Shown in pieces: positions 48,474 through 51,400 of a stretch of 64,000 nt of DNA. The translations under genes were made by a program, and so were the position numbers. Numbering within the stretch: position 1 is the stretch's first letter; every line of letters starts with the position of its first letter. Source of the stretch: Podarcis melisellensis (taxonomy: Eukaryota); the NCBI GenBank assembly GCA_964234715.1, contig OZ174282.1; one strand, written 5' to 3'. The notes below the pieces were generated by a model. The model was not told the DNA's origin, ran no database searches, and saw only the letters and a program-made list of their open reading frames with translations.

Positions 48474-51400
48474 ATGGGGGACACCCCGGCGGAAGAGGCG
48501 TCGCTGCACCGGCTGGAGGGCCTGGCGCCAGAGACGCAGGTCGGCGGCCTCCTGATCAAGAAGAAAAGCGCCGCCGAGGAGCAGCATGTCTTCAAGATCC
48601 CGGCGCCCCGCACCTCCCTGCTGGGTCTGGACCTCCTGGCCGCCCAGAAGCGCCGCGAGCGGGAAGAGAAGGACAACGGGGCTGAGGACCGGAAGAGGTC
48701 CCGGGTCTCCTCCTATAAGGACTGGGCTGAGGGCAAGGACGAGGGCGCTGCCGGCGAGGAAGAGGACGGCGACCCAGCTGGGCGCAGCAGCCGCAAGGAC
48801 AGGTGAGGGGAGGGCTTGGGAAGCTGCTCTTTCTGCAACGGTAGCTGCTTCTTAGGGAAGAAAGCAAGAGCTGAATTTGTTGAGGTAAAAACTTCAGCCC
48901 TCCTCTTCTTCCACTTTCCAGGCATTATCGCTCAGCTCGTGTGGAGACACCATCTCACACTGGAGGAGTCAGTGAGGAGTTTTGGGAGCGCAGCCGGCAG
49001 CGGGAAAGGGAACGTCGTGAGCATGGGGTTTATGCCTCCTCCAAGGAGGAAAAAGAGCGCAAAAGGGACCACGGCCGGGAGCGGGAACATGATCGCAAAC
49101 GGGACCGAGGTAATTCCTGCTCATGAGTAGCTCCACCCCCCAGGACTGCCACTGGTCTTTTCACTGGGTGGGCCATGGCTGATCATAGGTTGCCTCCACA
49201 GATGAGCGGGACCGAAGTCGACGCAGCAGCAGTAGCCGCTCAGAGAGAGAGGCCTCCTCAGAGAGGAGCAGCAGTAGTCGGAAAAATGAACCAGAGAGTC
49301 CTCGCCACCGACCCAAAGGTGCCCTCTCTCTATCTGCCCACTCCACCTGGATGATGGGGAGCGTCTGTAGACTGTTGCCTTCTTCTTCCTCTGTGTATGG
49401 GGTTGGGTGAGCAACTGCTGGGCTATGCATGGCTGTGGCACATCTTCATGGCAGTTGTGTTGGGACCCTGGGAGCAAAGGGTGTTAGGGTGGCAGAAGGG
49501 GGAGTAGTCCAAACCAACTGGTGGTTTCCTTCTTGTGCCTAGATGCAGCTACACCTTCCCGCTCCAGCTGGGAGGAAGAGGACAGTGGCTACAACAGTTC
49601 ACGCCGCTCCCAGTGGGAGTCTCCTTCCCCCACGCCCTCCTACCGGGACTCAGAGAGAAGTCACCGGGGATCTGCCTCCCGGGATAGCGAACGGCGTGAT
49701 CGTGACCGGTATGGAGGTGCAAATCAGACTTGGGGGTGTGGGGATGAGGCTGATGGATGAGGCCTGGCTGGAGCAAGCAGTCCTTGCCCTCTGGGCTGTT
49801 GCCTTGACTGTGTTTCTCCTGGTTGCTCTCACAGGTCTGTCAGGAGCAAGTACCCAGAGGACACCCCGTTGCCAACGCCTTCATACAAATACAATGACTG
49901 GGCTGACCATCAGAGACACTCTGGTGCAACACCTTGGCTCTCCAGAGGCAGAGGTTAGAGACTGGGAAAGCTGAAGTGGGGGAGGAGGACTCAGCAATCT
50001 GGGGCCAGAATCAGGCCTTCATGATACTTTCCATTCTTAGGAAGGCGTGAAGATGGTGAGGATGGCATTGCTTTTGAAACTGAGGAGGAGCGACAGCAGT
50101 GGGAAGATGACCAGCGGGTGAGTGTGCAGCACTCTTTAACAAATGATCCCAAACAGACGCCCCCTCACTAGGGTTATTTATCTTCTTCATCTCATACCTT
50201 GGAGAGTGAGGGTGCCCAGAGTTGTTTGGCTCTCTCTTTGGGGAGAGTTGGAAGTGAAGGAGAAGGGCTTGATGGTTGTCACATGTGGGTGTTCTTGGGC
50301 TCAGGCCCTGTGTTTGGTGTGTTTGGTGGCTGTGTTTGGTGGCCATTGAAGGCTGCCTTTTCCAAAGTGCCAGCTCAGCTCCAGTGCGGTATGTCATAAT
50401 GAACAAGATTGGTGAGAGTGTGTCTCTGGCTTGCATTGCTGAAACTTTCTTCTTGTCCCCCCCTCCCCCCACCATCAGCAAGCTGACAGGGACTGGTACA
50501 TGATGGATGAGGGCTACGACGAGTTCCACAATCCCCTGGCTTCTTCATCAGAGGAGTACGTGAGGAAGCGGGAACAGCACCTGCAGAAGCAAAAGCAGAA
50601 GCGCATCTCAGCTCAGCGCAGGCAGATAAATGAGGTAGGGGAGTGCTGGAGAGGGTGGCGCCCAGTGGTGGCAAACACATGACCATTGTCGCTGGAAGGG
50701 CTCCCTTAAAACTGAGGGGCTGCTGAGTGGCCTGGCCTTGTTTTCTGCTTGGTAGGATAATGAGCGCTGGGAGACCAACCGCATGCTGACAAGCGGCGTG
50801 GTGCACCGACTGGAGGTGGACGAGGATTTTGAGGAGGATAACGCTGCGAAGGTTCATCTTCTGGTTCACAACCTGGTGCCTCCCTTCCTGGATGGGCGCA
50901 TTGTCTTCACGAAGCAGGTAGGCCAGAATCTAAACAAGTGGTGGCAGCAAATGGGGAGGGGGGAGTTGAAGTTGGGGCAGGGCTGTTCCTTTGTGGATCA
51001 CTTTTCTTGCTTCCTTCTAGCCTGAGCCTTTTCTTGCTTCCTTCTAGCCTGAGCCCGCCATCTAAACAAGTGGTGGCAGCAAATGGGGAGGGGGGAGTTG
51101 AAGTTGGGGCAGGGCTGTTCCTTTGTGGATCACTTTTCTTGCTTCCTTCTAGCCTGAGCCCGTCATCCCCGTCAAGGATGCTACTTCCGACCTGGCGATC
51201 ATCGCCCGCAAAGGCAGCCAGTTGGTGCGCAAGCACCGCGAACAGAAGGAGCGCAAAAAGGTACAGTCCGAGTTTCTGTTGGGTCTCTCTCCCCCCCCCC
51301 TTCTTGTGGGCTTAATCTCCACTGAGTAAGGAACTTGCCTGCTGGGGGCAAACTGTCTTTCCAAGCAGGAATGTAGCTGCAGCTGCTTAAGACTTTATTT

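Follow-up and report, generated by a model that had tools for sequence, protein, structure and literature searches.

A likely recent tandem duplication places two poison acceptors ahead of the productive 3' splice site in one intron of DHX38

One intron of DHX38/PRP16, an essential spliceosomal gene, carries three 3' splice sites whose sequence is identical from -20 to +3, and only the last of them opens onto a productive reading frame. The three sites are the product of a nested tandem duplication that copied the intron-exon boundary. On balance we expect the third, true acceptor to dominate splicing in carriers, and the duplication is probably a recent, tolerated mutation and not a switch by which the gene regulates itself. 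The locus lies in a 64-kb stretch of DNA, here called the window (C8:43,524,001-43,588,000), from a vertebrate assembly of 1.57 Gb in 386 contigs; all coordinates are positions in this window.

Protein comparison with human PRP16 confirms both the gene and the placement of the three acceptors in a single one of its introns. Three exons match the human protein, and exons further downstream can be made out by eye. The segment 50759-50869 corresponds to residues 374-410, and the 48 nt that continue from it to the donor supply the 16 codons for residues 411-426. Because these 48 nt cover 411-426, the exon that follows acceptor 3, with 35 of its 36 residues identical to human 427-462, is exactly colinear with the human protein and starts at residue 427, bearing out the claim of a preliminary description of this DNA that only the most distal acceptor is correct. 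This exon (51153-51260, plus strand, 108 nt, 36 codons) is followed by a donor GT at 51261, and the 5' splice site of the affected intron, a GT at 50918-50919 on the same strand, is single and lies outside the duplication. Further downstream, 52189-52374 has PRP16 as its best hit and corresponds to residues 547-608, where the helicase core begins; both decoy products would therefore end ahead of the helicase domain. The DHX38 region and the exon 51153-51260 each occur once in the assembly, in which neither a compensating paralogue nor a haplotig of the gene was found. Two further outcomes can be read from the exon itself: skipping it would, as it is in phase, remove the equivalent of human residues 427-462 with no frameshift, and an in-frame AG 6 nt inside it (exon start 51159) could lose two codons.

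A 27-nt acceptor motif occurs three times in the window, starting at 51002, 51029 and 51134, and gives exon starts at 51021, 51048 and 51153, all on the plus strand, in agreement with the three near-identical 3' splice sites first described for this intron. Acceptors 1 (51000-51020) and 3 (51132-51152) each consist of a predicted branch A at -21, a tract and an AG, with the same predicted branch point and the same tract at both. Acceptor 2 (51025-51047) differs in that its predicted branch A lies at -23 and comes from duplicated exon bases. Acceptor 1 has 93 upstream nucleotides in common with acceptor 3, and acceptor 2 has 20; the first decoy thus does have the upstream intron sequence of the real site, as had been proposed, and is reached first. 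From the single donor, the intron would measure 103 nt to acceptor 1, 130 nt to acceptor 2 and 235 nt to acceptor 3.

The reading frames fall out differently at the three sites. From acceptor 1, 8 codons are followed by TAG at 51045-51047, and from acceptor 2, 5 codons are followed by TAA at 51063-51065; acceptor 3 alone among the three motif acceptors leads into an open, productive frame. The name of poison acceptors, which had been given to the first two, is thus justified by in-frame stops. Indeed, the three resulting versions of the exon (240, 213 and 108 nt) are each divisible by 3, implying that the poison consists of such stops and not of frameshifts. Both stops (51045 and 51063) lie more than 50 nt upstream of the next junction at 51260, the arrangement named by the sequence criterion for AS-NMD, the 50-nt rule for premature stops as stated in PMC6547761. 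We considered whether a decoy could be rescued by a cryptic in-frame donor, and rejected this on finding no GT between either decoy and its stop, the first one lying at 51070. Recursive splicing was likewise rejected, since the acceptors read AG and then CC rather than GT.

Underlying these acceptors is an exact 101-nt repeat at an offset of 132 nt, with 0 differences between 50928-51028 and 51060-51160, both on the plus strand. The first copy holds the intron body, G-runs, the predicted branch point, the pyrimidine tract, the AG and 8 exon nucleotides; the G-runs of the second copy separate the decoys from the true acceptor. Taken together, 105 nt were duplicated with 3 nt (ATC) of microhomology, a further duplication of 27 nt is nested inside, and a single C/T difference marks the junction. 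The net gain is 132 nt, and the structure corresponds to the 105-bp duplication with a 27-bp sub-duplication that had been called originally. The internal duplication (51001-51055, plus strand) is in tandem and contains the tract, the AG and the first exon bases, and a unique junction segment (50999-51089, plus strand) crosses both new breakpoints. The duplicated unit begins 10 nt past the donor, and the intron has grown from 103 to 235 nt. Each of the near-identical adjacent copies of the boundary now includes a predicted branch point together with a tract, an AG and the start of the exon. Within the window this is the sole exact repeat of at least 75 nt within 500 nt, which is far beyond chance; TRF did not report the repeat at offset 132, and the exact-match scan recovered it as a positive control.

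Nested tandem duplications can arise by replication slippage or template switching. The 3-nt microhomology, the nested 27-nt slip and the single base change at the junction suggest that such a process, in a single event or in two successive ones, would have made the present duplication. A second and older tandem duplication lies at 54221-54537 in a large intron of DHX38, with a period of about 143; its best TRF row gives a match of 94%. Its surroundings are AT-rich, it adjoins 16-nt repeats at 54043-54080 and 54791-54838, and it is possibly part of a transposon remnant.

The copies are 100% identical across 101 nt, as would be expected if the assembly had repeated a true intron made of a single 103-nt unit, an artefact that the preliminary description had listed among its options. 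Of 23 sequencing runs, 20 contain part of the stretch, and three from one sample, S1, share 0.85-0.97 of its words; S1 is probably the source of the assembly. Four of the 23 runs (X1, X2, X4 and X5) were compared over 50912-51240. X1 and X2, both from S1, each gave three contigs with 0 differences from the assembly: a collapsed repeat contig of 101 nt (depth 70.6 in X1 and 194.5 in X2), a junction contig of 91 nt covering 50999-51089 (38 and 97.2) and a downstream flank contig (33.9 and 112.7). The lengths of 91 and 101 nt match the prediction for a 31-mer graph, because the two shorter repeats measure no more than 28 and 30 nt. None of the runs compared gave a contig over the flank on the donor side, 50912-50927. 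The junction contig, seen at about flank depth in two of the two S1 runs compared, and the repeat, about twice as deep, confirm that the duplication is present in the organism's DNA and refute the artefact for sample S1; the chance that we leave to a single-unit intron is close to nil.

The same depths bear on zygosity. The ratio of repeat to junction was 1.86 in X1 and 2.00 in X2, where a homozygote is expected to give 2 and a heterozygote 3, and the ratio of junction to flank was 1.12 and 0.86, with expectations of 1 and 0.5, respectively. The allele is likely homozygous or hemizygous, two states that depth does not distinguish, on the basis of one mean depth per contig in one individual. 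Neither X4, which has the same species label but comes from another sample, nor X5, from organism B, gave any contig over 50912-51240; such blanks can be false, and would also arise from an unbroken contig that passes through a filtered upstream part, as predicted for an unduplicated intron. X4 contains 0.64 of the words of 50100-52200, near the share of other organisms (0.52-0.56, with X5 at 0.56), which suggests a deep split within the species label, low coverage or loose labelling. The six runs guessed to be RNA all belong to organism G; they contain 0.21-0.24 of the words of the stretch, a share that carries no information on expression. The duplication is likely recent, in a sense that is not sharply dated, because 0 differences in 101 nt bound the divergence of the copies to less than 2.9%, a value above the ~1.4-1.9% implied for X4 and X5.

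A base rate for such events was obtained from 120 stretches of 10 kb (1.2 Mb), 20 of them near the window and 100 spread over contigs C1-C10. Near-identical local duplications of at least 100 nt occurred twice (~1.7 per Mb): one with a 148-nt period at 98%, found by TRF (L057:8679-9345), and one with a 109-nt exact match at offset 178, found by exact matching (L113:6800-7086). This extrapolates to ~2,600 such duplications per genome (320-9,500). If round numbers of 200,000 acceptors, a 100-nt target and 1.5% of acceptors in spliceosome genes are assumed, the neutral expectation before selection is that ~33 hit an acceptor and ~0.5 (0.06-1.8) do so in spliceosome genes per genome; on the same assumed numbers, the expectation for DHX38 alone is ~0.004. 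With about half a hit expected in spliceosome genes, chance can yield such a case, and the identity of the gene is therefore weak evidence of function.

Which of the acceptors is used must depend on context, because the three are identical from -20 to +3, and for the same reason splice-site scoring would not separate them. The first 100 nt past acceptors 1 and 2 contain four G-runs and nine GGG triplets, and the first 100 nt past acceptor 3 contain none. Acceptor 1 keeps 8 exon nucleotides and acceptor 2 keeps 10 before the four G-runs follow. The GGG runs of this spacer lie at 51085-51112, and it also contains the hexamers GTGGCA (51073) and GGAGGG (51087), neither of which occurs in the true exon. 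In reporters with competing 3' splice sites, the upstream site was suppressed most strongly by a G-triplet element, and exonic silencers had less effect where 3' sites competed than at 5' sites (PMC1877881). GGAGGG and GTGGCA have themselves been described as silencers between competing 3' sites, with GTGGCA the weaker of the two, and weakening GGAGGG, including by a swap to GTGGCA, relieved the repression of the upstream site (PMC2095810). By analogy, the G-runs and hexamers of the DHX38 spacer may silence the decoys. We infer the dominance of acceptor 3 because use of acceptor 1 or 2 makes four G-runs exonic, and acceptor 3 keeps the 108-nt exon.

The requirement for the gene points the same way. 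Zebrafish null for dhx38 die at 3-4 dpf, and heterozygotes are bred (PMC10589891). Given that the null is lethal, a homozygous carrier must make working mRNA, which of the three acceptors only the third provides; since heterozygotes can be bred, survival gives no more than a loose lower bound for correct splicing. What counts against acceptor 3 is the length of the correct intron, which at 235 nt now falls within the limit of 200-250 nt quoted for cross-intron recognition, a Drosophila-based figure (PMC2397502). Local folding predicted the tract of acceptor 1 to be the most accessible and that of acceptor 2 to be base-paired: the probability that a 10-nt tract window is unpaired was 0.22 and 0.18 for acceptor 1, 0.05 and 0.004 for acceptor 3, and ~0.001 for acceptor 2. 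We propose that the spliceosome would mostly use the last, true acceptor, bypassing the two decoys, and that the decoy-spliced transcripts that leak through would presumably be cleared by nonsense-mediated decay (NMD), without a regulatory role.

How large that leak might be is the main point on which a different outcome can be imagined. Acceptor 1 could be used in ~20-70% of transcripts through cross-intron pairing on the 103-nt intron, its transcripts being lost to NMD and the output of DHX38 lowered with no feedback; such a hypomorph would have become homozygous by drift or inbreeding. A substantial leak of this kind is possible because acceptor 1 recreates the original 103-nt intron, a length in the intron-definition range. 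This acceptor is also transcribed first, it has the acceptor sequence, upstream nucleotides and branch candidate of the true site, and its tract is the one predicted to be most open. A sizeable leak could moreover be tolerated, since zebrafish heterozygotes are bred and knockdown of DHX38 in HEK293 altered the splicing of few genes, so that a lower dosage may be tolerated (PMC8985939). Nevertheless, the G-runs and the named silencer hexamers would turn exonic in these transcripts, and the allele appears homozygous in an essential gene; taking both sides together, we regard a leak of this size as rather unlikely, though it keeps appreciable weight. Of the explanations offered at the outset, that of a hypomorph or of rescue of the distal site fits best, with acceptor 3 favoured, and that of an autoregulatory switch found no support.

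In such a switch, more DHX38 would lead to more use of the poison acceptors and so to less DHX38 mRNA. Alternatives bearing premature stops do exist in the sequence, overexpression of DHX38 favoured a cryptic 5' site of an HBB reporter (PMC8985939), Prp16 may permit the use of alternative 3' sites (PMC7935899, citing Semlow 2016), and it affects branch-site choice on mutant substrates (PMC10639067). However, the choices that Prp16/DHX38 is reported to influence concern mutant branch or 5' sites (PMC10639067, PMC8985939), and proofreading of a suboptimal site cannot discriminate between acceptors 1 and 3, whose branch candidates and tracts are identical. The binding site of Prp16 on the assembled spliceosome lies between branch point and 3' site, on the lariat downstream of a branch point that has already been chosen (PMC7935899). 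Branching at the first site leaves acceptors 1 and 2 reachable, both of them poison, and branching at the third leaves only the true acceptor, or the in-frame AG 6 nt further on. The choice of a 3' site unit is made at U2AF/U2 recruitment, before Prp16 acts; because the intron holds two identical branch-and-tract units 132 nt apart, the choice between productive and poison splicing is likely made at that step. Nor is there any sign of tuning in the 101 nt over which the copies agree, and no report of DHX38 autoregulation was found among the matches listed in a limited search, and neither PMC8985939 nor PMC6547761 was found to contain one in its main text. Overall, we consider feedback by DHX38 on its own intron to be highly improbable. 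If the intron is regulated at all, G-run-binding hnRNP H/F would be more plausible actors than DHX38. A tunable AS-NMD switch in a homozygous lineage, with a sizeable share of acceptor 1 followed by NMD and set by tissue hnRNP H/F or by DHX38, has in our view a small chance of being correct.

A tolerated mutation spliced mostly at acceptor 3 has parallels in known systems. Reporters with competing tandem 3' splice sites (PMC1877881, PMC2095810) resemble DHX38 in having tandem acceptors, a G-rich or silencer-containing spacer and an upstream site that is expected to be suppressed. Unlike the reporters, DHX38 presents a natural and apparently homozygous germline allele, with three acceptors of identical -20 to +3 sequence in an essential spliceosomal gene. 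Experiments with duplicated splice sites were reportedly also done by Reed and Maniatis in 1986. In intron gain by segmental duplication (Hellsten et al. 2011, PMC3265369), splice signals are likewise copied, and the redundant copy can be removed with the protein unchanged; unlike there, the DHX38 donor is single and an existing intron becomes longer. With no copy made of the donor, the DHX38 duplication does not count as an intron gain. Inspection of the insert by eye revealed no new donor-acceptor pair, none of its six GT sites having an A at +3 or a donor-like consensus. The AS-NMD autoregulation of splicing factors (PMC6547761) is similar in that a premature stop lies well ahead of later junctions, whereas in the known cases the protein binds its own pre-mRNA, often with deep conservation, and Prp16 acts on assembled spliceosomes. 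As judged from its sequence, the locus has only the sequence criterion in common with AS-NMD autoregulation. A published natural duplicated acceptor with measured usage was not found among the matches listed. By analogy, the DHX38 allele would behave as the competing-acceptor reporters do, and as an intron that grows by tandem duplication.

Because of the duplication, a gene annotation can wrongly report a premature stop. If acceptor 1 were used to a large or tissue-dependent extent, one step would have sufficed to create a poison splice choice, and a genuine switch would be an AS-NMD switch caught at birth, made by one mutation in the gene for a core spliceosomal helicase. If our preferred reading is true, with splicing mostly at acceptor 3, the allele would be a natural in vivo duplicated-acceptor experiment, in which context alone decides and loss of the gene is lethal, and it would provide a clean test for splice-prediction models and for the buffering of structural mutations by G-run silencers.
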